Source of the DNA: Dehalococcoidia bacterium
GTDB lineage: Bacteria; Chloroflexota; Dehalococcoidia; GIF9; AB-539-J10
Direction of reading: 5' to 3'
DNA: 64,000 bases
Assembly (NCBI GenBank): GCA_030605765.1
Contig: JAUWHP010000033.1
Span: forward strand, 7,812-71,811
Shown: positions 14,750 to 23,141 of the stretch, one piece after another
Layout of the letters: every line of letters begins with the position of its first letter
Position numbering within the stretch: the stretch's first letter is position 1
Made by a program: the position numbers and the translations under genes
The notes under the pieces: generated by a model
What the model was told of the DNA's origin: nothing
The model's database searches: none
The model's input: the letters and a program-made list of their open reading frames with translations, nothing else

Positions 14750-15961
14750 ATGGGCGAGACCTCTGGAGTAGGGGTTATTATAGTTGCTGCTGGCAAGGCT
14801 GAGCGGATGGGTGCTACGGACAAAATCTTTGCTCCCTTGGCGGGCAAACCTGTATTAGCTTGGCCGGTGGATACATGCCAGCGATGTAGCTTAGTTAAGC
14901 AGATAATCATTACGCTGAATAATGGCAATCTAAAGCCAGGCCAGAAGTTAAAAGAAGAAAGAGCTTGGACCAAGGCTACTATGTGTCTTGGTGGTGCACA
15001 GCGACAAGACTCGGTAAAGGAAGGGCTACTCAAGCTGAAGGACTGTGATCGAGTCATAATTCACGATGGAGCTCGCCCTTTCCTGACTTCGGATTTAATT
15101 CAAAATGGCTTGGAGGCAGCCAAAGAAACTGGTGCTGCTGTAGCTGCCGTGCCGGTTAAGGATACCATCAAATTTACCGATGATACGGGGTTAATTACGG
15201 AAACGCTTCAGCGTAATAGGTTGTGGGCAGTACAAACTCCACAAATATTCAGCTTTGATGTAATAAACCAGGCTTACCAGGAACTCACAACCGAGATTAC
15301 TGATGACGCCGCTGCTGTGGAGCGCTCAGGACACAAAGTGAAGATTTATCCTGGCGATTACAATAATATAAAGATAACCACACCTGAGGATTTGGCGCTA
15401 GCGGAGATTATTGCACGGCTTAATCCTGAACAAAGCAAGTGCCCTCCTTGTTACCCTGAGCGGCACGAAGGAGCTAAGGAAGAACTGAGAGTTGGCATTG
15501 GCTATGATAGCCATCCTTTGGTTCCGGGGCGCAAGCTGGTTTTGGGTGGTGTGGATATTCCTTATGATAAGGGCTTATTAGGGCGGAGTGATGCTGATGT
15601 GGCCACTCACGCTATTATAGATGCTTTGTGTGGTGCCGCTGATCTTGGTGATATTGGCACTCGGTTCCCTCCGGAAGATCCGAGGCACGAAGGCATCTCC
15701 AGTTTGGATTTGCTGAATGAAATTCGTAAGCTACTTGAAGGAAAAAACTTTAAGGTAACTAATATCGATACTACTATCATTGCCCAACGTCCCAAACTTT
15801 CGCCTTTTGTTCCTGAGATGAGAAAACAAATCAGCCAAGCTTTAGGTATTAAAACGACACAGGTGACGATTAAAGCTACTACCACCGATGGTTTAGGTTT
15901 TATCGGTAGAGAAGAGGGAATAGCTGCTCAATCTGTAGCTTTAGTTACCACCATTTTATAA
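14750..15961 (+). CDS. ispDF: bifunctional 2-C-methyl-D-erythritol 4-phosphate cytidylyltransferase / 2-C-methyl-D-erythritol 2,4-cyclodiphosphate synthase
   Basis: N-terminal IspD (VIIVAAGKAERMG) fused to C-terminal IspF (RVGIGYDSHPL...GRSDADV). Confidence 0.92.
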   Translation: MGETSGVGVIIVAAGKAERMGATDKIFAPLAGKPVLAWPVDTCQRCSLVKQIIITLNNGNLKPGQKLKEERAWTKATMCLGGAQRQDSVKEGLLKLKDCDRVIIHDGARPFLTSDLIQNGLEAAKETGAAVAAVPVKDTIKFTDDTGLITETLQRNRLWAVQTPQIFSFDVINQAYQELTTEITDDAAAVERSGHKVKIYPGDYNNIKITTPEDLALAEIIARLNPEQSKCPPCYPERHEGAKEELRVGIGYDSHPLVPGRKLVLGGVDIPYDKGLLGRSDADVATHAIIDALCGAADLGDIGTRFPPEDPRHEGISSLDLLNEIRKLLEGKNFKVTNIDTTIIAQRPKLSPFVPEMRKQISQALGIKTTQVTIKATTTDGLGFIGREEGIAAQSVALVTTIL

Positions 15962-16212
15962 CTTGGTTTACCTTCTTCCCAGTAGACTATAAATTTGACT
16001 GCTCTCTGTTGTGTCAAATACTCTTCACTTTCCCGGCGCAGCTTTTTGAAATCCGTTGATTCTAAAAAGGCCTTGAGAAGCTCGATATTCATTGCTGCTT
16101 CTTTGTCTTCTTGCGCACTTTCCATATACTTGTTTACCAGGCTCCAGAATTCTTCTCTGGCTACAGTTTCTATGCAATGGGAAAGGCTGGGCAAAAGGTC
16201 TATACAACCCAT
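15928..16212 (-). CDS. hypothetical small acidic protein (convergent with ispDF, overlapping its 3' end)
   Basis: 94-aa ORF with no recognisable domain and helical/acidic composition. The real start may be an internal Met. Confidence 0.3.
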   Translation of the reverse strand: MGCIDLLPSLSHCIETVAREEFWSLVNKYMESAQEDKEAAMNIELLKAFLESTDFKKLRRESEEYLTQQRAVKFIVYWEEGKPSYKMVVTKATD

Positions 16213-16251: not shown

Positions 16252-16280
16252 TTGACAGCATTAATGATGGGTGTTAGAAT
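16252..16280 (+). promoter_or_regulatory. near-consensus sigma70-type promoter (TTGACA, 17-nt spacer, TAGAAT) for the DUF134 operon
   Basis: TTGACAgcattaatgatgggtgtTAGAAT read directly from the sequence, about 50 nt upstream of the DUF134 gene start. Confidence 0.55.
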
Positions 16281-16329: not shown

Positions 16330-16794
16330 TTGGCTAGGCCGGTGAAATTGCGGTGTGTTGCCCAATTACCTAGAGCGGGTTTTTTTAGGCCGGTAGGGCC
16401 TCCAGCAAGTGCTTTACAAAAGGTTTGCCTTTCTGTGGAAGAAATCGAATCTATTCGGCTTAAGGATTTTGAGGGGTTGGAGCAGGAGGAATGTGCTCAA
16501 GAGATGCGCATCTCCAGGCCAACTTTCCACCGTATATTAGGGTCAGCCAGAAAGAAATTGGCCGATGCCTTGGTTAATGGCAAAGCGATTCAAGTTGAAG
16601 GTGGTAACTTTGGATTAGCTCAAAGTTATTTTAGGTGTAACAATGATGGACATGAATGGAATGTACCTTTTGAGGCTCTGGCACGTGGATTTCCATTATC
16701 TTGCCCTATATGCTCCAGTGCGAACATCCAGCCTTTGCCTTCATTTGGCTTTGGGAAAAGATATGGCAGGCGATTCCGTGGAGGAAGAGTTTAA
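16330..16794 (+). CDS. DUF134 (UPF0251) family putative DNA-binding protein with C-terminal Cys-containing extension
   Basis: N-terminus MARPVKLRCVAQLPRAGFFRPVGPP...VEEIESIRLKDFEGLEQEECAQEMRISRPTFHRILGSARKKLADALVNGKAI matches the DUF134 signature (sigma-70 region-4-like HTH). The C-terminal extension has C-x4-H ... CPIC. Confidence 0.8.
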   Translation: MARPVKLRCVAQLPRAGFFRPVGPPASALQKVCLSVEEIESIRLKDFEGLEQEECAQEMRISRPTFHRILGSARKKLADALVNGKAIQVEGGNFGLAQSYFRCNNDGHEWNVPFEALARGFPLSCPICSSANIQPLPSFGFGKRYGRRFRGGRV

Positions 16795-16837: not shown

Positions 16838-17077
16838 ATGCCATTTGGAGATGGAACAGGGCCAGTAGGGTTGGGTCCAATGACGGGCAGAGCAGCGGGT
16901 TTTTGTGCCGGTTTCGGCAGGCCTGGGTTTGCCAATCCCATTCCTGGAAGTTGGTTTGGCTTTGGCAGTGGGGCACCTTATGGGCATTACTATGCTGGGC
17001 GTTATAGCCGTTTCTATCCTTGGCGAGGTCGGGGCAGACGGTGGAGATGGTGGGCGCCCTATCGGTATTCCTGGTAA
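16838..17077 (+). CDS. Gly-rich small protein, DUF5320-like N-terminal module (MPFGDGTGPVGLGPMTGRAAGFC...); C-terminal part apparently out of frame
   Basis: Strong RBS aaggaggtg, conserved N-terminal motif shared with 17298 and 18548. The C-terminus (RGRGRRWRWWAPYRYSW) looks like frame-shifted sequence. Confidence 0.6.
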   Translation: MPFGDGTGPVGLGPMTGRAAGFCAGFGRPGFANPIPGSWFGFGSGAPYGHYYAGRYSRFYPWRGRGRRWRWWAPYRYSW

Positions 17078-17103
17078 GGAAGAAATTTAGGGGGGGTGAT
17101 ATA

Positions 17104-17280
17104 ATGTGGCCTTGGTTTGGACGGAATCCTTGGGGATGGCCTGCATATAGAATGCCTTATGGTTACCCGTGGGGAGCCATACCTAAAGAGGAAGAGATAA
17201 GAATGCTTAAAGAGCAAGAGAGATGGCTGACGAACGAACTGAATGATGTAAAGAAGAGACTTGAAGAAATTCGCAAATAA
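17104..17280 (+). CDS. small Trp/Pro-rich protein with C-terminal coiled-coil (DUF5320-like C-terminal module)
   Basis: 58 aa: MWPWFGRNPWGWPAYRMPYGYPWGAIPKEEEIRMLKEQERWLTNELNDVKKRLEEIRK. A G7 tract plus ATG sits at 17090-17106. The coiled-coil motif recurs in the 17298 and 17705 products. Confidence 0.5.
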   Translation: MWPWFGRNPWGWPAYRMPYGYPWGAIPKEEEIRMLKEQERWLTNELNDVKKRLEEIRK

Positions 17281-17297: not shown

Positions 17298-17690
17298 ATG
17301 CCAGGATTTGATGGAACAGGACCAGGTGGAATGGGTCCGATGACAGGAGGTGGAAGGGGTTTTTGTAGCCCCTGGGGCTCAGGCGGTTGGCACGGTTTAG
17401 GGAGAGGAGGCGGTTTTGGATTTAGGGGAAGCTCTCCTCCGTGGCCTTTTGTTGGTATAGGTAGGGGGGGATTGCCCAGAGGTGCGTATCCGGGAGCTGC
17501 TGGGATGCCTGTATCACCAGCCTACCCCTCTTATAGTAGCCCTTCGACTATGCCTTATGGGAGTAGCCCTTACGCTGCACAAATGACTCGGGAGCAGGAA
17601 ATGGATTTTCTGAAGAGCCAAACTGAAGCAATGAAGGGGCAATTGGAGCAAATTGGTGCTAGAATGAAAGAACTGGAAACAGAAGAATAA
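17298..17690 (+). CDS. DUF5320-like Gly-rich protein (full length: N-terminal GDGTGP motif plus C-terminal coiled-coil)
   Basis: RBS aaggaggtg. Sequence MPGFDGTGPGGMGPMTGGGRGFC ... REQEMDFLKSQTEAMKGQLEQIGARMKELE. Confidence 0.75.
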   Translation: MPGFDGTGPGGMGPMTGGGRGFCSPWGSGGWHGLGRGGGFGFRGSSPPWPFVGIGRGGLPRGAYPGAAGMPVSPAYPSYSSPSTMPYGSSPYAAQMTREQEMDFLKSQTEAMKGQLEQIGARMKELETEE

Positions 17691-17704: not shown

Positions 17705-18283
17705 ATGAAGATCGGAGTGTCAGCAATAGCTCCTAGTTTAGATGCTGAAGTGGACCCCCGGTTTGGAAGATGCCAATACTTTGTCATTGTTGATCCGCAA
17801 ACCATGGAATTTGAAGCTTTACAGAATTCTAGTGCCATGGCTGCAGGTGGAGCTGGCATTAGCACGGCTCAGATGATTGCCAATAAAGGGGTACAAGTAA
17901 TACTTACCGGCAATTGTGGGCCTAATGCTTATCAGACATTATCCGCTGCTGGACTTCAGGTGATCACTGGCGCTGCCGGCAGGATAAGGGATGTTGTGCA
18001 GGCTTATAAGGATGGTAAATTTCAACCAACTGCTCAGGCTAATGTAGGTAGCCATTATGGCATGGGCAGTGGCTCTGGTATGGGTATGGGCCGCGGCATG
18101 GGCATGGGCATGGGTAGAGGAATGGGGCGTGGTATGGGGATGGCATCTATGACAGAGCCAGTACCTCAAGCCGTGGGCCCAGAACAAGAGACAGAGATGC
18201 TTAAAAGCCAGGCACAGGTATTAGGGCAGCAATTAAATGAAATACAACGGCGTATTGAGGAGTTAAGTAAAAAGAAGGAGTAA
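17705..18283 (+). CDS. NifX/NafY-like dinitrogenase FeMo-cofactor-binding family protein (Nitro_FeMo-Co, PF02579-like) with Met/Gly-repeat and coiled-coil C-terminal tail
   Basis: MKIGVSA...VDPRFGRCQYFVIVD...GAGISTAQMIANKGVQVILTGNCGPNAYQTL is a Nitro_FeMo-Co fold signature. The tail has GMGSGSGMGMGRGMGMGMGRGMGRGMGM followed by ETEMLKSQAQVLGQQLNEIQRRIEEL. Confidence 0.8.
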   Translation: MKIGVSAIAPSLDAEVDPRFGRCQYFVIVDPQTMEFEALQNSSAMAAGGAGISTAQMIANKGVQVILTGNCGPNAYQTLSAAGLQVITGAAGRIRDVVQAYKDGKFQPTAQANVGSHYGMGSGSGMGMGRGMGMGMGRGMGRGMGMASMTEPVPQAVGPEQETEMLKSQAQVLGQQLNEIQRRIEELSKKKE

Positions 18284-18292
18284 GGAGGTGCT

Positions 18293-18505
18293 ATGCCCAT
18301 CTATGAATATCAATGCACTCAGTGCGGACAAAAATTCGAGGTTCGCCAAACGATTGGTGAGGGAGGTTCTAAGCTAAGCTGCCCTAAATGCCATGCCTCA
18401 AATCCTGAAAGGCTCTTTTCTTCGTTCTTCAGCCCAGCCTCAATCACAACTGAGTCTTCAGGGACAAGCTGTCCTACTTGCAACTCTGGAATTTGTGGGC
18501 TGTAG
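18293..18505 (+). CDS. FmdB-family zinc-ribbon protein
   Basis: MPIYEYQCTQCGQKFEV...LSCPKCHAS is the hallmark FmdB CxxC...CxxC. An extra C-terminal CPTCNSGIC is present. Confidence 0.8.
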   Translation: MPIYEYQCTQCGQKFEVRQTIGEGGSKLSCPKCHASNPERLFSSFFSPASITTESSGTSCPTCNSGICGL

Positions 18506-18547: not shown

Positions 18548-18772
18548 ATGTCCAGAGGAGATGGCACAGGCCCTTTGGGTCAGGGACGGGGGACAGGAAA
18601 AGGGATGGGCCGTGGTATGGGAAGTGGGAGAATGGGAGGGAACCGCCCTGGAGCGGGTCCTAGCGGAAACTGCGTTTGCCCCAGTTGTGGGACAAAAGTC
18701 TCCCACCAGGTGGGCGTTCCCTGTTACAACCTGAGTTGTCCTAAGTGCGGGACGAAAATGATTAGAGAATAG
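18548..18772 (+). CDS. Gly-rich (GDGTGP motif) small protein fused to a C-terminal zinc ribbon
   Basis: MSRGDGTGPLGQGRGTGKGMGRGMG... then CVCPSCGTK...CPKCGTK. Confidence 0.65.
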   Translation: MSRGDGTGPLGQGRGTGKGMGRGMGSGRMGGNRPGAGPSGNCVCPSCGTKVSHQVGVPCYNLSCPKCGTKMIRE

Positions 18773-18773
18773 A

Positions 18774-19634
18774 ATGATAATCTCCGTTGCCAGCGGTAAA
18801 GGAGGCACAGGGAAAACGCTGGTAGCTGTAAATCTGGCTCTTACTTTGAGTGATGTGTACAGAGTACAGCTATTAGATTGTGATGTAGAGGAGCCAGATG
18901 CGCATATTTTTCTTCATTTAGCTACTAATCGAAGCGAAGCGGTAGTGATTCCTGTGCCTAGAATAGATGAGACGAAGTGTACCTATTGTGGCAGGTGTGC
19001 TGAAGTCTGTGTCTATAATGCTATCGCTGTGCTTAAGGGAAAGGTGCTCGTTTTCCCTGAGTTATGCCATGGCTGTGGAGCGTGTTCTTACTTATGCCCC
19101 GAGTCAGCTATTTCCGAGGAGGGGAGAGAAATAGGAGTGGTGGAAACAGGGGATTCAGGAAATATGGAGTTTATTCAGGGACGACTTGCCATTGGAGAGC
19201 CAATGGCTCCACCTATAATCAGGGAGGTAAAGAAGCACATTGATCGTGTAAGAGAGGTCATTATCGATGTTCCTCCAGGAACTTCTTGCCCCGTAGTAGA
19301 GGCAGTTAAGAGTAGTGACTTCTGCCTCTTGGTGACTGAGCCTACTCCTTTTGGGTTGAATGACCTTTCGCTAGCAGTAGAGCTGGTAAGAAAATTGCAA
19401 ATCCCATGCGGGGTGATAATTAACCGAAGTGGCGTAGGAGATGAAAAAGTTGAGCAATACTGTCAGGAGCAGGGGATACCCATCTTGCTGAAGATTCCTT
19501 TAGATAGAAATATTGCCACACTCTATTCGAAAGGAATCCCCTTGATAGCAGGTATGCCTGAGTGGCGTGGGGTCTTTGTTACTCTTTTTCAAAATATAAA
19601 GCAGATAGACTCAGCTAGTCGGGTGGTGAAATGA
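18774..19634 (+). CDS. MinD/ParA-superfamily P-loop ATPase with inserted 2x[4Fe-4S] ferredoxin domain
   Basis: Deviant Walker A SGKGGTGKT, ferredoxin insert CTYCGRCAEVC...CHGCGACSYLCP, then the continued ATPase fold (DVPPGTSCP). Confidence 0.85.
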   Translation: MIISVASGKGGTGKTLVAVNLALTLSDVYRVQLLDCDVEEPDAHIFLHLATNRSEAVVIPVPRIDETKCTYCGRCAEVCVYNAIAVLKGKVLVFPELCHGCGACSYLCPESAISEEGREIGVVETGDSGNMEFIQGRLAIGEPMAPPIIREVKKHIDRVREVIIDVPPGTSCPVVEAVKSSDFCLLVTEPTPFGLNDLSLAVELVRKLQIPCGVIINRSGVGDEKVEQYCQEQGIPILLKIPLDRNIATLYSKGIPLIAGMPEWRGVFVTLFQNIKQIDSASRVVK

Positions 19635-19765: not shown

Positions 19766-20626
19766 ATGAAAGAGGTTGTGGTTCTGAGCGGCAAGGGAGG
19801 AACCGGGAAGACAAGCTTGGTAGCTTCGTTTGCCGCTTTAGCTCAAAGTAAAGTATTGGTTGACTGCGATGTTGATGCCGCAGACCTCTACCTTCTTCTC
19901 AAACCACAAGTTACGGAGGAAAACGAATTTTGGAGTGGCCAGATTGCCTTCATTGATAAAAAAGTATGCACTGAGTGTGGACTTTGCCAGGAAATGTGCC
20001 GTTTTGGAGCTATAAAGGATTACTTTGTTGATAAGATTTCTTGTGAGGGCTGCGGGCTATGTTCTCAAATCTGCCCCGTTAATGCTATTATTATGCAATC
20101 TTGTATGGCTGGACACTGGTTTATTTCTGAGACAAGCTATGGCACTCTCATTCATGCTAAATTGGGAATTACTGAGGAAAGCTCCGGCAAGTTAGTAACC
20201 TTGGTTCGGAATAGCGCCAGGCTTGTAGCGGAGGAGGGAAAATTCGATTATATCATCAGCGATGGTCCTCCAGGTATTGGCTGCCCGGTTATCGCTTCTC
20301 TATCCGGAGCTAATTTGGCACTCCTGGTAATCGAGCCTACATTATCAGGAATCCATGACCTCGAGCGTGTAATTGGTGTCTGCCGCCACTTTGGCATTCC
20401 CATTCTGGTTTGCATAAACAAATATGACATAAACGAAGAAAACTCTTATCGCATTGAAGATTACTGTCATAACAACGATATAGAAGTGGCAGTAAAAATT
20501 CCTTTTGACAATGTAGTGACTGAGGCAATTGTTGAGGGCTTACCTGTAGTGGAGTACTCCGACGGCAAAGTAACTCAGCAGGTGAGGGAGCTATGGAAAA
20601 TTGTTTCAGTAAAGTTAAATAATTAG
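19766..20626 (+). CDS. MinD/ParA-superfamily P-loop ATPase with inserted 2x[4Fe-4S] ferredoxin domain (paralog)
   Basis: SGKGGTGKT, ferredoxin insert CTECGLCQEMC...CEGCGLCSQICP, DGPPGIGCP. Confidence 0.85.
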   Translation: MKEVVVLSGKGGTGKTSLVASFAALAQSKVLVDCDVDAADLYLLLKPQVTEENEFWSGQIAFIDKKVCTECGLCQEMCRFGAIKDYFVDKISCEGCGLCSQICPVNAIIMQSCMAGHWFISETSYGTLIHAKLGITEESSGKLVTLVRNSARLVAEEGKFDYIISDGPPGIGCPVIASLSGANLALLVIEPTLSGIHDLERVIGVCRHFGIPILVCINKYDINEENSYRIEDYCHNNDIEVAVKIPFDNVVTEAIVEGLPVVEYSDGKVTQQVRELWKIVSVKLNN

Positions 20627-20636
20627 GAGGGAAGAG

Positions 20637-20879
20637 ATGCCAATTTATGAATATAGGTGTTTGAATTGTGGGAGGATATCAGAAATCCTCCTTCGCAATC
20701 TGGACAACGAAAACATTGAGTGCCCAATATGCGGCAGCGAGAATCTGGAAAAGCTTTTGTCTGCTTCCTATGCTATAAGGATGAATGATTCTATGCCTGC
20801 TGGAACTTGCTGCGGCAGAACAGAGCGCTGCGAGACACCTCCTTGCTCTGTGAATGGCACCTGTAGGAGGAATGACTGA
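20637..20879 (+). CDS. FmdB-family zinc-ribbon protein (paralog)
   Basis: MPIYEYRCLNCGRISEI...IECPICGSE, with a Cys-rich C-terminal tail. Confidence 0.8.
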   Translation: MPIYEYRCLNCGRISEILLRNLDNENIECPICGSENLEKLLSASYAIRMNDSMPAGTCCGRTERCETPPCSVNGTCRRND

Positions 20880-20881
20880 AA

Positions 20882-21220
20882 ATGAGATACGCGGTACCTG
20901 TAGTAGATGGCAAAGTGGCTGAGCACTTTGGCCATTGTAGCCATTTTGCCTTGTTTGATATCGATGAAACGAGCAAGGTGATTGTGAAGAAGGAGGTAAT
21001 AGCTTCGCCAGGACATCAACCTGGATTTCTTCCAGAGTGGCTGGCTGCGGAAGGAGTTTCCGTTGTTATAGCTAATGGCATGGGATCCAGGGCACAAAGC
21101 CTTTTTAGAGAGAGCCGTATTGAAGTTGTTACTGGCACGCTAGGAGATGAGCCACAGGAAGCCGTTCTAGCTTACCTGAGAGGTACATTGGCTACTGGCG
21201 ATAATTTGTGTGACCATTAA
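20882..21220 (+). CDS. NifX/NafY-like (Nitro_FeMo-Co family) protein (paralog, no tail)
   Basis: MRYAVPVVDGKVAEHFGHCSHFALFDIDE...VIANGMGSRAQSLF. Confidence 0.8.
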   Translation: MRYAVPVVDGKVAEHFGHCSHFALFDIDETSKVIVKKEVIASPGHQPGFLPEWLAAEGVSVVIANGMGSRAQSLFRESRIEVVTGTLGDEPQEAVLAYLRGTLATGDNLCDH

Positions 21221-21246: not shown

Positions 21247-22248
21247 ATGGCAACTGAAGATTCGGTGATTGAAGCGTTAAATAAAGTGCTTGTCCCTGGA
21301 GCAATGCGTAGCTTGGTGCAGATGAATTTGTTGCGAAACGTTGAAGTTAAAGATGGAGAGGCGAAAATCACTTTGGCTTCGACTGCTATCCCTGCCCAAT
21401 CTCAGGATTGGTTAAGGGCTAAAGTGACCACAGCAGTTCGCGAACTGCCTGAAGTGAAAGGAGTTGTTGTTGACCTTGTAGAAGCCAAACCTAAGGAACT
21501 TAACCAAATTCAGAATATAATAGCTGTGATGAGTGGAAAAGGTGGAGTGGGCAAATCTTTGGTAGCTGGCTTACTGGCTGTTGCTTTTGCTCGAGATGGT
21601 AAGGAGGTTGGTATACTTGATGCTGACATTACCGGCCCTAGCATCCCTAAAATGTTTGGTTTAAATATTCACCCTAGTGGCAGCGAGACAGGTATCTTGC
21701 CGATATTATCGAGGTCTGGAATTGAAGTTATGTCTATGAACCTTCTATTGCCTAGCGAAGATGAAGCAGTTATTTGGAGAGGCCCTCTTATGTCAAAAGC
21801 CATTACGCAGTTCTGGGAGGAGGTGCTTTGGGGCAACCTTGATTATCTCGTGGTTGATTTGCCACCTGGTACTGCGGATGCCGCATTGACAGTATTGCAG
21901 ACTTTACCGCTTGCCGGTGTAATCGACGTTTTTACTCCTCAGGAGTTGACGGGAATGATAGTGAAAAAGGCAGTGAAAATGGCAAGGAAATTAAACGTTC
22001 GTGTTCTGGGGGTAATAGAGAACATGAGCTATCTGTTGTTACCCGAAACGGGCAAAAAACTGGAGGTTTTTGGCCGGAGCAAGGGAGAGGAAATGGCTAA
22101 GGCCTGTGAAGCACCACTGTTAGGGCAATTGCCTATTGACCCTCAATTGGCTAAATTGTGTGATGAAGGAAATATTGAGAGATACAATTCGGATGCCTTG
22201 TCACAAATCTTTGCCAATGTAGGTGCTGCTCTAAATGAGAGAAAGTGA
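21247..22248 (+). CDS. Mrp/NBP35/ApbC-family P-loop ATPase with N-terminal DUF59/MIP18-like domain; lacks the canonical CxxC cluster-bridging motif
   Basis: DUF59-like N-terminus (LLRNVEVKDGEAKITL), Walker A SGKGGVGKS, and the conserved ENMS segment present as VIENMSYLLLPETGKK with no cysteines. Confidence 0.8.
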   Translation: MATEDSVIEALNKVLVPGAMRSLVQMNLLRNVEVKDGEAKITLASTAIPAQSQDWLRAKVTTAVRELPEVKGVVVDLVEAKPKELNQIQNIIAVMSGKGGVGKSLVAGLLAVAFARDGKEVGILDADITGPSIPKMFGLNIHPSGSETGILPILSRSGIEVMSMNLLLPSEDEAVIWRGPLMSKAITQFWEEVLWGNLDYLVVDLPPGTADAALTVLQTLPLAGVIDVFTPQELTGMIVKKAVKMARKLNVRVLGVIENMSYLLLPETGKKLEVFGRSKGEEMAKACEAPLLGQLPIDPQLAKLCDEGNIERYNSDALSQIFANVGAALNERK

Positions 22249-22266: not shown

Positions 22267-22728
22267 ATGACAGTGGAAGTTGGAAATTCCTTTAAAGAGT
22301 TGGAGGAATCTGTTATGCAGGATATGCTAAAAACCTATTCTGAGGAAGCAATCGACCATTTTCTTAACCCGAGAAATCTGGGGCAGATTGAATCTCCAGA
22401 TGGGTTTGGAAGGGTAACCGGCCCTTGTGGGGATACCATGGAGATATATCTCAGGGTAAATGGAGGCAGGATTACAAATGCTACCTTCCTGACTGGTGGC
22501 TGTGGCCCCAGTATCGCCTCCGGCAGCATGGCCACTGAGCTAATTAAAGGAAAGAGCATTGTTGAGGCTCAGAACATAAGCCAAGATAATATTCTAAATG
22601 CCTTAGGAGGACTTCCTGAGGAGAGCCAGCACTGTGCCCTTCTGGCGGCAAATGCACTTAAAGAAACAGTTAGAGACTATTTAGCCTTCAAAAACGAACC
22701 TTGGAAAAGGCTTTATAAAGTCCACTAG
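22267..22728 (+). CDS. IscU/NifU-N-like Fe-S cluster scaffold protein
   Basis: Three conserved Cys in their expected contexts: GPCGDTM, GGCGPS, QHCALLA. An alternative start lies at the ATG near 22309. Confidence 0.8.
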   Translation: MTVEVGNSFKELEESVMQDMLKTYSEEAIDHFLNPRNLGQIESPDGFGRVTGPCGDTMEIYLRVNGGRITNATFLTGGCGPSIASGSMATELIKGKSIVEAQNISQDNILNALGGLPEESQHCALLAANALKETVRDYLAFKNEPWKRLYKVH

Positions 22729-22871: not shown

Positions 22872-23141
22872 ATGTTAAAAGTAAATGTGAATCTTTGTGT
22901 GGGTTGTGCTTTATGCGCCCAGGTATGCCCTCAAGGGGCTATCAGCCTCATTGGGGGCAAAGCAGAGGTAGATACCAGTAAATGTGACTCTTGCTATTGG
23001 TGTCTTGAAGCGTGCCCTCGAGGCGCAATTTCTGAGTTGATTATAGTCTCCCCGGAGGAACTAAGAGTTACTGTTTCTACGCTAAAGCGACAAACAGATG
23101 ATATAATAAAGAGGATTAACAGGCTGGCTACCAAGGTTTAG
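22872..23141 (+). CDS. 2[4Fe-4S] ferredoxin
   Basis: CVGCALCAQVCP and CDSCYWCLEACP clusters. Confidence 0.75.
   Translation: MLKVNVNLCVGCALCAQVCPQGAISLIGGKAEVDTSKCDSCYWCLEACPRGAISELIIVSPEELRVTVSTLKRQTDDIIKRINRLATKV

Follow-up and report, generated by a model that had tools for sequence, protein, structure and literature searches.

A Putative ORP-type Cluster Carrier with a DUF5320 Tail in an orp-like Operon of a Dehalococcoidia Bacterium

Anatomy of the Gene Product and Identity of Its Two Parts

The DNA considered here is a 64,000-nucleotide stretch (the window) from a Dehalococcoidia bacterium (GenBank assembly GCA_030605765.1, contig JAUWHP010000033.1, positions 7,812 to 71,811 of the forward strand), in which an open reading frame (ORF) at 17705-18283 on the + strand, the target of this study, encodes a 192-residue protein with a Nitro_FeMo-Co domain, a segment rich in methionine and glycine, and a C-terminal helix. 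The ORF starts with an ATG that lies 14 nucleotides after the stop of the preceding gene and has a GGAGG sequence 7-8 nucleotides upstream. Judged by its sequence, the product is an ordinary member of a common two-domain architecture that is already catalogued in sequence databases, with a head of the ORP type and a tail that belongs to the DUF5320 family. The head (residues 1-105, 17705-18019) matches Nitro_FeMo-Co (PF02579) in Pfam at residues 13-102 with an E-value of 7e-25 and 87.6 bits, the cut-off being 26.3, and in an AlphaFold2 model based on an alignment of 66 homologs (alignment A2), residues 1-110 form a confident α/β domain with a predicted local distance difference test score (pLDDT) of 94-97. 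The N terminus, MKIGVSAIAP, is strand 1 of the fold, and the protein is without a hydrophobic leader or membrane segment. The tail, of 87 residues, contains a cationic Met/Gly/Arg repeat (residues 117-150, 18053-18154), which begins at a conserved H-Y-G-M-G junction and falls in a region modeled as disordered (residues 118-156, pLDDT <50). This is followed by a single amphipathic helix (residues 159-190, 18179-18274, pLDDT 74-83), in which the heptad a and d positions are hydrophobic (L166, A170, L173, L177, I180, I184, and L187). The whole protein has 2 cysteines and a pI of 7.75. An earlier note on this DNA had described the fold, the repeat, a shared coiled coil, and a tail-less paralog at 20882-21220, and all of this anatomy is borne out by Pfam, the AlphaFold2 model, and the alignment; the Met/Gly string quoted there, GMGSGSGMGMGRGMGMGMGRGMGRGMGM, corresponds to residues 119-146 of the target.

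DUF5320 is a family of small uncharacterized proteins from anaerobic bacteria and archaea. Residues 119-187 match positions 30-99 of the 99 in the DUF5320 profile (PF17253) with 44 bits, compared with a gathering score of 27, and the helix corresponds to the C-terminal part of the family. The N-terminal motif of DUF5320, MPxGDGTGPxGxGPMTGRxxGxC (profile positions 1-29), is not matched in the target and is replaced by the ORP domain. The other features of the family, a G-M-G-R repeat, a Pro-rich spacer, and an E-x-E-x-LK-x-Q...RI-x-ELE coil, are also present in the target tail, and a coil motif, P-E-Q-E-x-E-M-L-K-S-Q...Q-L-x-E-I-x-R-R-I-E-E-L, is common to the target and the products of the genes at 17104-17280 and 17298-17690, with a looser form in the ferredoxin encoded at 22872-23141. 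A search with the tail only returned almost solely PF17253 proteins, in which the domain occurred by itself or joined to PF02579 or to a ferredoxin domain. The standalone DUF5320 proteins, those named being from Planctomycetales, Bacteroidales, Spirochaetota, and Deltaproteobacteria, consist of the N-terminal motif, a repeat of the GRGMGMGRGRGMG type, a Pro-rich spacer, and the coil. The presence of the same repeat in these proteins indicates that the Met/Gly/Arg repeat is intrinsic to DUF5320, and the Met/Gly tail is not a one-off but the defining low-complexity core of this family. Matches of the tail to KRTAP in Pfam and to XpsB, fractalkine, and a multicopper-oxidase insert in the Protein Data Bank (PDB) were rejected as reflecting low-complexity composition only.

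A homolog search in 5.8 billion proteins gave 6246 matches. In the best 120 of these (66-96% identity), PF02579 and PF17253 occur together in every case (120/120), each with a (G-M-G-R)-type repeat; the names include “predicted Fe-Mo cluster-binding NifX family protein,” “DUF5320 family protein,” and “NifB/NifX family...,” and the named proteins are from metagenome-assembled genomes of Chloroflexi/Dehalococcoidia. When representatives at 50% identity were considered, there were 4960 matches at E ≤1e-3 and 198 at E ≤1e-30, and a tail of at least 25 residues was present in 146 of the 150 representatives listed. The few organism names obtained for cluster members were from WOR-3 and Anaerolineae. 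A heptad helix is found in about 85 of these 146 tailed representatives, an added C-terminal 2x[4Fe-4S] domain in 12, at least two GMG/MGM motifs in 88, and RGxG repeats in 30 more. The earlier note had viewed the fusion as one not recognized from characterized NifX/NafY/NifY proteins. The fusion is neither unrecognized nor rare, since the tail passes the DUF5320 gathering score, both domains are present throughout the best 120 homologs, and the survey of architectures, with the 88/146 cited above, found the combination of PF02579 and PF17253 to be widespread. In the literature searched, DUF5320 appears in just two papers, each time incidentally, and an ORP with a DUF5320 stalk is not discussed; for DUF134, only unrelated DUF134x families came up, and a paper on thiomolybdate made no mention of ORP. 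Fusions of Fer4 with DUF5320 are found in both orders (P0346, P0368, and P0392; P0152, P0157, and P0208). One large protein, P0166 (1516 residues), combines four or more Nitro_FeMo-Co-like domains with long PTAGM / QPATIPPMGQTTAGMPTSG repeats and with several C-x2-C zinc ribbons similar to the one encoded at 18548-18772 in the window.

By its nearest relatives, the head is ORP-type and not NifX proper. Its best match in the PDB is 2WFB, the ORP of Desulfovibrio (Megalodesulfovibrio) gigas (E 3e-21, 44% identity), and in Foldseek, the structures superpose with a TM-score of 0.91 and a root mean square deviation of 0.9 Å at 44% identity. MTH1175 ranks second in the PDB (E 4e-18), 1RDU is also among the best matches by sequence, and the Foldseek TM-scores for 2WFB, 1RDU, 2YX6, and 1O13 range from 0.79 to 0.91. 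NifX, NafY, and the C-terminal domain of NifB share the Pfam family and fold of the target, but identities with these proteins are just 13-22%, being 22% with NifX (9IAN_F) and 13% with NafY (1P90). A NifX-type match was not found in NCBIfam, where the sole match was to MrpORP. The nearest relative is ORP and neither NifX nor NafY; NifX in the strict sense is ruled out by the absence of a nif context, the lack of a match to a NifX model, and the identity of 22%. The characterized ORP carries a [S2MoS2CuS2MoS2]3- cluster (PMC6345978).

The Operon and DUF5320 Loci Elsewhere

The genes of the target cluster are all on the + strand and are preceded by a sigma-70-like promoter, TTGACA-17-TAGAAT with a TG, at 16252-16280, which is a consensus match only (11/12 positions). 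The first gene (16330-16794) encodes a DUF134 protein, with a sigma-70 region-4-like helix-turn-helix (HTH) (PF02001, E 8.5e-25). There are four DUF5320-type genes besides the target. That at 16838-17077 encodes the N-terminal half of the family, with the MPxGDGTGP...C motif and a Gly/Arg/aromatic tail but no coil (PF17253 positions 1-61, E 2.7e-12), and that at 17104-17280, starting at the ATG at 17104 with GGAGG upstream, encodes the C-terminal half, a Trp-rich segment with the coil helix (positions 43-99). The third (17298-17690) is a full-length standalone DUF5320 protein with an aromatic-type repeat and the coil (positions 1-99, E 8e-13), so that aromatic-type and Met-type repeats coexist in the operon. 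The fourth, downstream of the target at 18548-18772, combines an N-terminal motif (MSRGDGTGP) and GKGMGRGMGSGRMGG with a 4-Cys zinc ribbon (a weak PF17253 match at positions 1-40 and zinc-ribbon matches). A frameshift or pseudogene at the first DUF5320 gene, where 16838-17077 overlaps a long ORF at 17020-17280, was considered but rejected because two relatives (L001 and L003) have two genes at this location and because of the ATG with a ribosome-binding site at 17104. In the product of 18548-18772, the zinc ribbon replaces the coiled coil, and one Nitro_FeMo-Co fusion (P0233) ends in a similar ribbon.

Between the target and the last of these genes is a gene for an FmdB-type zinc ribbon protein (18293-18505; PF09723, TIGR02605), and beyond them are two genes for Orp3/Orp4-like MinD/CbiA-Fer4 ATPases, both carrying an inserted 2x[4Fe-4S] domain and identified with Pfam (18774-19634, where CbiA, ParA, and Fer4 are matched, and 19766-20626) and one for a further zinc ribbon protein (20637-20879; Zn_ribbon_8 in relatives). 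The tail-less Nitro_FeMo-Co paralog (20882-21220) has 112 residues and an HFGHC motif and is equivalent to the C-terminal domain of MrpORP (NCBIfam MrpORP positions 265-365, E 9e-34, 117 bits), whereas the Mrp/NBP35 ATPase encoded at 21247-22248 is equivalent to its N-terminal part (positions 1-239, 310 bits as compared with 223 bits for ApbC). These two proteins cover the MrpORP model in two parts and jointly represent a split MrpORP. The split is also permuted, the Nitro_FeMo-Co gene being upstream of the Mrp/NBP35 gene; the latter has an extra N-terminal FeS_assembly_P/DUF59-type domain in relatives. The paralog has HFG at the place where the N-terminal domain of the target has RFG. The remaining genes are for a NifU_N/IscU-type Fe-S scaffold (22267-22728; TIGR03419, E 1e-39) and the 2x[4Fe-4S] ferredoxin (22872-23141; Pfam Fer4), whose C-terminal helix (SPEELRVTVSTLKRQTDDIIKRINRLATKV) resembles the DUF5320 coil in the alignment. 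Synteny, including all of the DUF5320 genes, is kept in relatives at 75-84% identity.

The content of the window was examined by Pfam scans of 40 ORFs and a six-frame scan for the HMA motif, GMTCxxC. The rest of the 64 kb is housekeeping (ClpB, LeuRS, ProC, RadA, IspDF, GatB, MetRS, FtsH, and IleRS, together with YidC, HtrA, a Liv-type ABC transporter, and POR). Among the ORFs scanned, none belongs to a nif, copper, or molybdenum system, and the HMA motif is in no frame; with both scans empty, a copper or molybdenum context in the window was rejected. Upstream of the cluster, IspD and IspF are fused in frame in a 403-residue product (14750-15961) and are encoded by two genes in the close relatives L001 and L004. 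A divergent gene for 94 residues upstream of DUF134 (15928-16212, - strand) is kept in relatives, where it is annotated as PF27306, AF_2379; the copy in the window has no Pfam match at E ≤1e-6.

In Desulfovibrio, the ORP complex contains Orp3 and Orp4, which are proteins with ferredoxin motifs, as well as Orp5, Orp8 (ORP), and Orp9 (MrpORP) (PMC6345978). In two loci of tail-less ORP orthologs (L012 and L013), the gene order is ORP, two CbiA-Fer4 genes, Nitro_FeMo-Co, and Zn ribbon. The target precedes a pair of MinD-ferredoxin ATPase genes and a further Nitro_FeMo-Co gene, as ORP does in these operons, and by this gene order, it stands in the place of ORP in an orp-like Fe-S operon. A counterpart of the MrpORP of the ORP complex is also encoded at the target locus, although in two genes. 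DUF5320 and DUF134 are not present in the sampled ORP ortholog operons (L012 and L013), and on the basis of these comparisons, the DUF5320 modules are additions to an orp-like operon in the lineage of the target.

Six loci with standalone DUF5320 genes (L006-L011) were inspected, a small sample and not a census. In Planctomycetales (L007), the genes are DUF134, Nitro_FeMo-Co, DUF5320, CbiA-Fer4, DsrE, CbiA-Fer4, Nitro_FeMo-Co, and NifU. Other arrangements are DUF5320, FeoA, FeoB, DUF134, and ferritin (L008, 6001-9530); DUF134, NifU_N, LGT, DUF5320, Mrp, and CGGC (L009); DUF5320 near NikR, Mrp, two CbiA-Fer4 genes, and CGGC (L011); and DUF5320 with an ARMT1-like gene (L010). In a genome of 3.38 Mb (L006, 1-6282), DUF134 and DUF5320 are a few kb from a gene of the MamC family, a magnetosome protein, and from a P-type ATPase gene. 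The recurring theme of the six loci is iron and Fe-S handling, DUF134 being the most constant neighbor, and a recognizable copper system is found in none of them. The contexts in L008 and L006 hint at a link of DUF5320 to iron uptake, storage, or mineralization.

The Repeat and Its Possible Functions

The 34 residues from 117 to 150 include 10 Met, 14 Gly (41%), and 3 Arg, and have a pI of 11.7 and a net charge of +3. With the proteins of the window itself as the baseline (2.2% Met and 7.5% Gly), the enrichment is significant for both Met (P = 2e-9) and Gly (P = 5e-8), and among the real genes of the window, the repeat is the only strong Met-rich stretch besides a segment of YidC. The underlying DNA is an imperfect array with a period of 6/12/18 at 18076-18143. 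The length of the repeat is polymorphic in relatives with 91-96% identity (P0001-P0005), which have 174, 180, 186, 190, and 192 residues, and the two-residue length steps indicate an ongoing gain and loss of GM-type units. Such observations would fit a repeat that is only a flexible, ligand-free spacer, a neutral and slippage-prone stretch of low complexity between the carrier domain and a docking helix: the segment is disordered, its DNA is an imperfect tandem repeat, its copy number differs between relatives that are more than 90% identical, and some homologs (for example, P0158, P0202, and P0206) pass almost straight from the junction motif to the coil. This explanation nevertheless appears rather unlikely, because the Gly/Met/Arg composition is kept across phyla with varied codons, whereas the composition of a neutral spacer would change over time. 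The target repeat draws on four Gly and three Arg codons, and codon variation together with conservation across phyla suggests that its composition is under selection and is not due to recent slippage alone.

The start of the tail has a junction motif, V-x-x-H-[FY]-G-M-G (18047-18067, residues 115-121), that is present in 75 of the 146 diverse representatives, and His117 and Gly119 are invariant in alignment A2. At the variable (x) position of the repeat, Met accounts for 90% of residues in close homologs among the ORP fusions and 48% in diverse ones, with Phe at about 2%; Gly and Arg also fill this position in the diverse fusions. The standalone DUF5320 proteins have Met at 43% and Phe at 17% of the x positions of [RK]GxG, in a sample that is biased by the Met-rich query.

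The earlier note had likened the repeat to Cu(I)/Ag(I)-binding Met motifs. In an explicit form of this proposal, the MxM/MGM repeat captures Cu(I) or Ag(I) and hands the ion to the carrier domain, for example for an ORP-type Mo/Cu-sulfide cluster. The composition agrees with this, as the 10 Met in 34 residues are clustered in MxM/MxxM arrangements with MGM spacing, the invariant His117 opens the repeat in an H-[YF]-G-M-G motif, a combination of MxM and a nearby His that is chemically suited to Cu(I)/Ag(I), and Met is the preferred x residue in ORP fusions. A weak compositional similarity of the tail to a Met-rich insertion in a multicopper oxidase (6TTD/6SYY, E 0.003) points the same way, and the closest solved homolog, ORP, carries a Mo/Cu-sulfide cluster (PMC6345978), but the tail-less ORP binds its cluster unaided. 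The target, lacking a signal peptide or membrane segment, is predicted to be cytoplasmic. Cu(I) sites in the cytoplasm use Cys, and Met-only Cu(I) motifs are typical of oxidizing extracytoplasmic compartments. Moreover, among the ORFs scanned in the 64 kb, there are no copper or molybdenum genes, cop, cus, cue, and pco included, and no HMA motif; the inspected DUF5320 neighborhoods have Fe and Fe-S themes and not copper ones. The repeat is found also in standalone DUF5320 proteins and ferredoxin fusions, its x position can be Phe (standalone proteins) or Gly and Arg (diverse fusions), and the regular interspersion of Arg, with a net charge of +3, disfavors the binding of cations. Capture of Cu(I)/Ag(I) by the repeat is consequently very unlikely, and since any MxM peptide binds Cu(I) weakly, simple binding in vitro would not discriminate. 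A metal-related hand-off at the tail, as the earlier note suggested, is still conceivable because DUF5320 has no assigned function and ORP carries a Mo/Cu-sulfide cluster.

The dense, exposed Met residues and the Fe-S context in an anaerobe could also be taken to suggest a redox element that scavenges oxidants, or acts as an assembly switch through reversible oxidation of Met, and so shields oxygen-labile clusters in a strict anaerobe. Redox regulation of Desulfovibrio orp operons through OrpR, as described in PMC8359166, would be in keeping with this. However, a gene for methionine sulfoxide reductase was not found in the operon or the window ORFs examined, and the position of Met can also hold Phe when DUF5320 stands alone; a role of this kind is highly improbable.

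Among characterized Nitro_FeMo-Co proteins, a long tail is found only in IssA (PF2025) of Pyrococcus furiosus, a thioferrate iron-sulfur storage protein with an IPR003731/Nitro_FeMo-Co head, for which MTH1175 served as a structural model (PMC5524996). Its tail is cationic, with 70 residues rich in Gly, Arg, and aromatic residues, and was proposed to wrap the anionic thioferrate electrostatically without precisely placed ligands; an uncharacterized clade designated “IssX” has Gly-rich tails (PMC5524996). According to a 2026 review, IssA orthologs have been described only in archaeal species (PMC13066941). In both IssA and the target, the tail that comes after the head is long, disordered, cationic, rich in Gly, and built on a recurring pattern, but the tail of IssA is first Pro-rich and then Gly/Arg/aromatic and has no coiled coil, whereas that of the target has Met in its repeat and a helix at its end. 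The IssA clade was defined by an IPR003731 domain, a pI of at least 9, fewer than 5 Cys, and a Gly content of 20% or more over the last 40 residues (PMC5524996, Suppl. Fig. 7), and the target has the domain and its 2 Cys fall below the limit of 5.

With these relationships in mind, we propose that the target is an ORP-type cluster carrier mounted on the C-terminal two thirds of DUF5320, which would act as a stalk with a docking coil and a tether, and put the chances of this at about even. In such a mechanism, the C-terminal helix of the target would bundle with the equivalent helices of the co-encoded paralogs to form a hub, and the Gly/Met/Arg segment of about 35 residues would be a flexible tether that keeps the ORP head within reach of the MinD-ferredoxin ATPases, MrpORP, and NifU. 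DUF5320 would then be a reusable stalk for different metallo-heads: the Cys motif, ORP, and the 2x[4Fe-4S] ferredoxin. The tether may in addition wrap an anionic metal-sulfide cargo, as proposed for the tail of IssA, with Arg providing electrostatic interactions and Met (Phe in standalone DUF5320 proteins) a polarizable hydrophobic contact. Both the docking and the cargo-wrapping steps are inferred; the sharing of the x position by Met and Phe and the occurrence of both types of repeat in the operon make the wrapping of cargo plausible.

Several points weigh against this proposal. The AlphaFold2 model is of a monomer, and oligomerization and cargo binding rest on inference. The strong preference for Met in the ORP fusions is unexplained by a model that is purely electrostatic or purely a tether. 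With respect to IssA, the pI of the target, 7.75, is below 9, and the last 40 residues contain only 2 Gly (2/40, 5%), because the coil is located there; the likeness of the target repeat to the IssA tail is taken as an analogy. Also, the characterized Desulfovibrio ORP works without a tail or a DUF5320 partner, and the role of the ORP complex is itself unsettled, both cell division and Fe-S maturation having been proposed (PMC6345978).

Taken further, the stalk proposal would make DUF5320 the equivalent of the IssA tail in bacteria and archaea. Its Gly-Met/aromatic-Gly-Arg segment and coil would bring ORP-type, ferredoxin, and Cys-motif heads together in a protein matrix, by which anionic metal-sulfide species (thioferrate-like Fe-S or thiometallate clusters) would be templated, stored, or mobilized in many anaerobes. 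This is unlikely, but if it were true, the ORP complex would gain a role in the storage and delivery of iron and sulfide. Assembly could have a different basis if the repeat were an RG/RGG-like low-complexity segment that self-associates in a multivalent manner, as a condensate or matrix, or binds nucleic acid, perhaps with DUF134. The RGxG repeats are regular and disordered, several co-encoded paralogs have similar segments, DUF134, with its sigma-70 region-4-like HTH, is the most constant neighbor of DUF5320, and when archaea were scanned for an RG-type quadruplex-binding motif, DUF134 and DUF5320 proteins were among those flagged (PMC7565180). The evidence in that study is a motif match only, however; a nucleic acid-processing gene is absent from the operon, and every head joined to the stalk is a metal-cluster domain, so that an RG/RGG-type function is distinctly unlikely as a separate explanation. 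Self-association as such is compatible with the stalk proposal and may be part of it.

Comparison with Known Systems

The Met-rich Cu(I)/Ag(I) motifs of CusF/CusB and CopC/PcoC, the insert in CueO, and the Mets motifs of Ctr1 resemble the target in having clustered MxM sequences with a nearby His. These motifs are extracytoplasmic, rich in His and Asp, and poor in Arg, and they are encoded with copper-homeostasis genes, whereas the repeat of the target is cytoplasmic, interspersed with Arg, and in an Fe-S context. The gene neighbors of the target point to iron-sulfur handling rather than copper.

The ORP orthologs of Desulfobacterota are mostly proteins of 115-124 residues with PF02579 only, as compared with the 192 residues and tail of the target. 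The orp operons of Desulfovibrio vulgaris are under the control of sigma-54 and OrpR (PMC6345978), whereas the target operon is headed by a sigma-70-like promoter and DUF134; no gene for a sigma-54 activator is adjacent to the target operon, in which a scan for -24/-12 elements was not made.

Through the window, the ORP complex and DUF5320, neither of them well understood, are connected with IssA, the one characterized precedent for a tailed Nitro_FeMo-Co protein. Should the connection between them fail, the target is one more member of a common uncharacterized architecture; should it hold, it would provide an experimental lead on how anaerobic bacteria tether or store metal sulfides. Relative to the systems that have been studied experimentally, the target is, from its sequence relationships, an ORP carrying a DUF5320 stalk, and by analogy with the tail of IssA, the connection of ORP, DUF5320, and IssA offers a testable lead.

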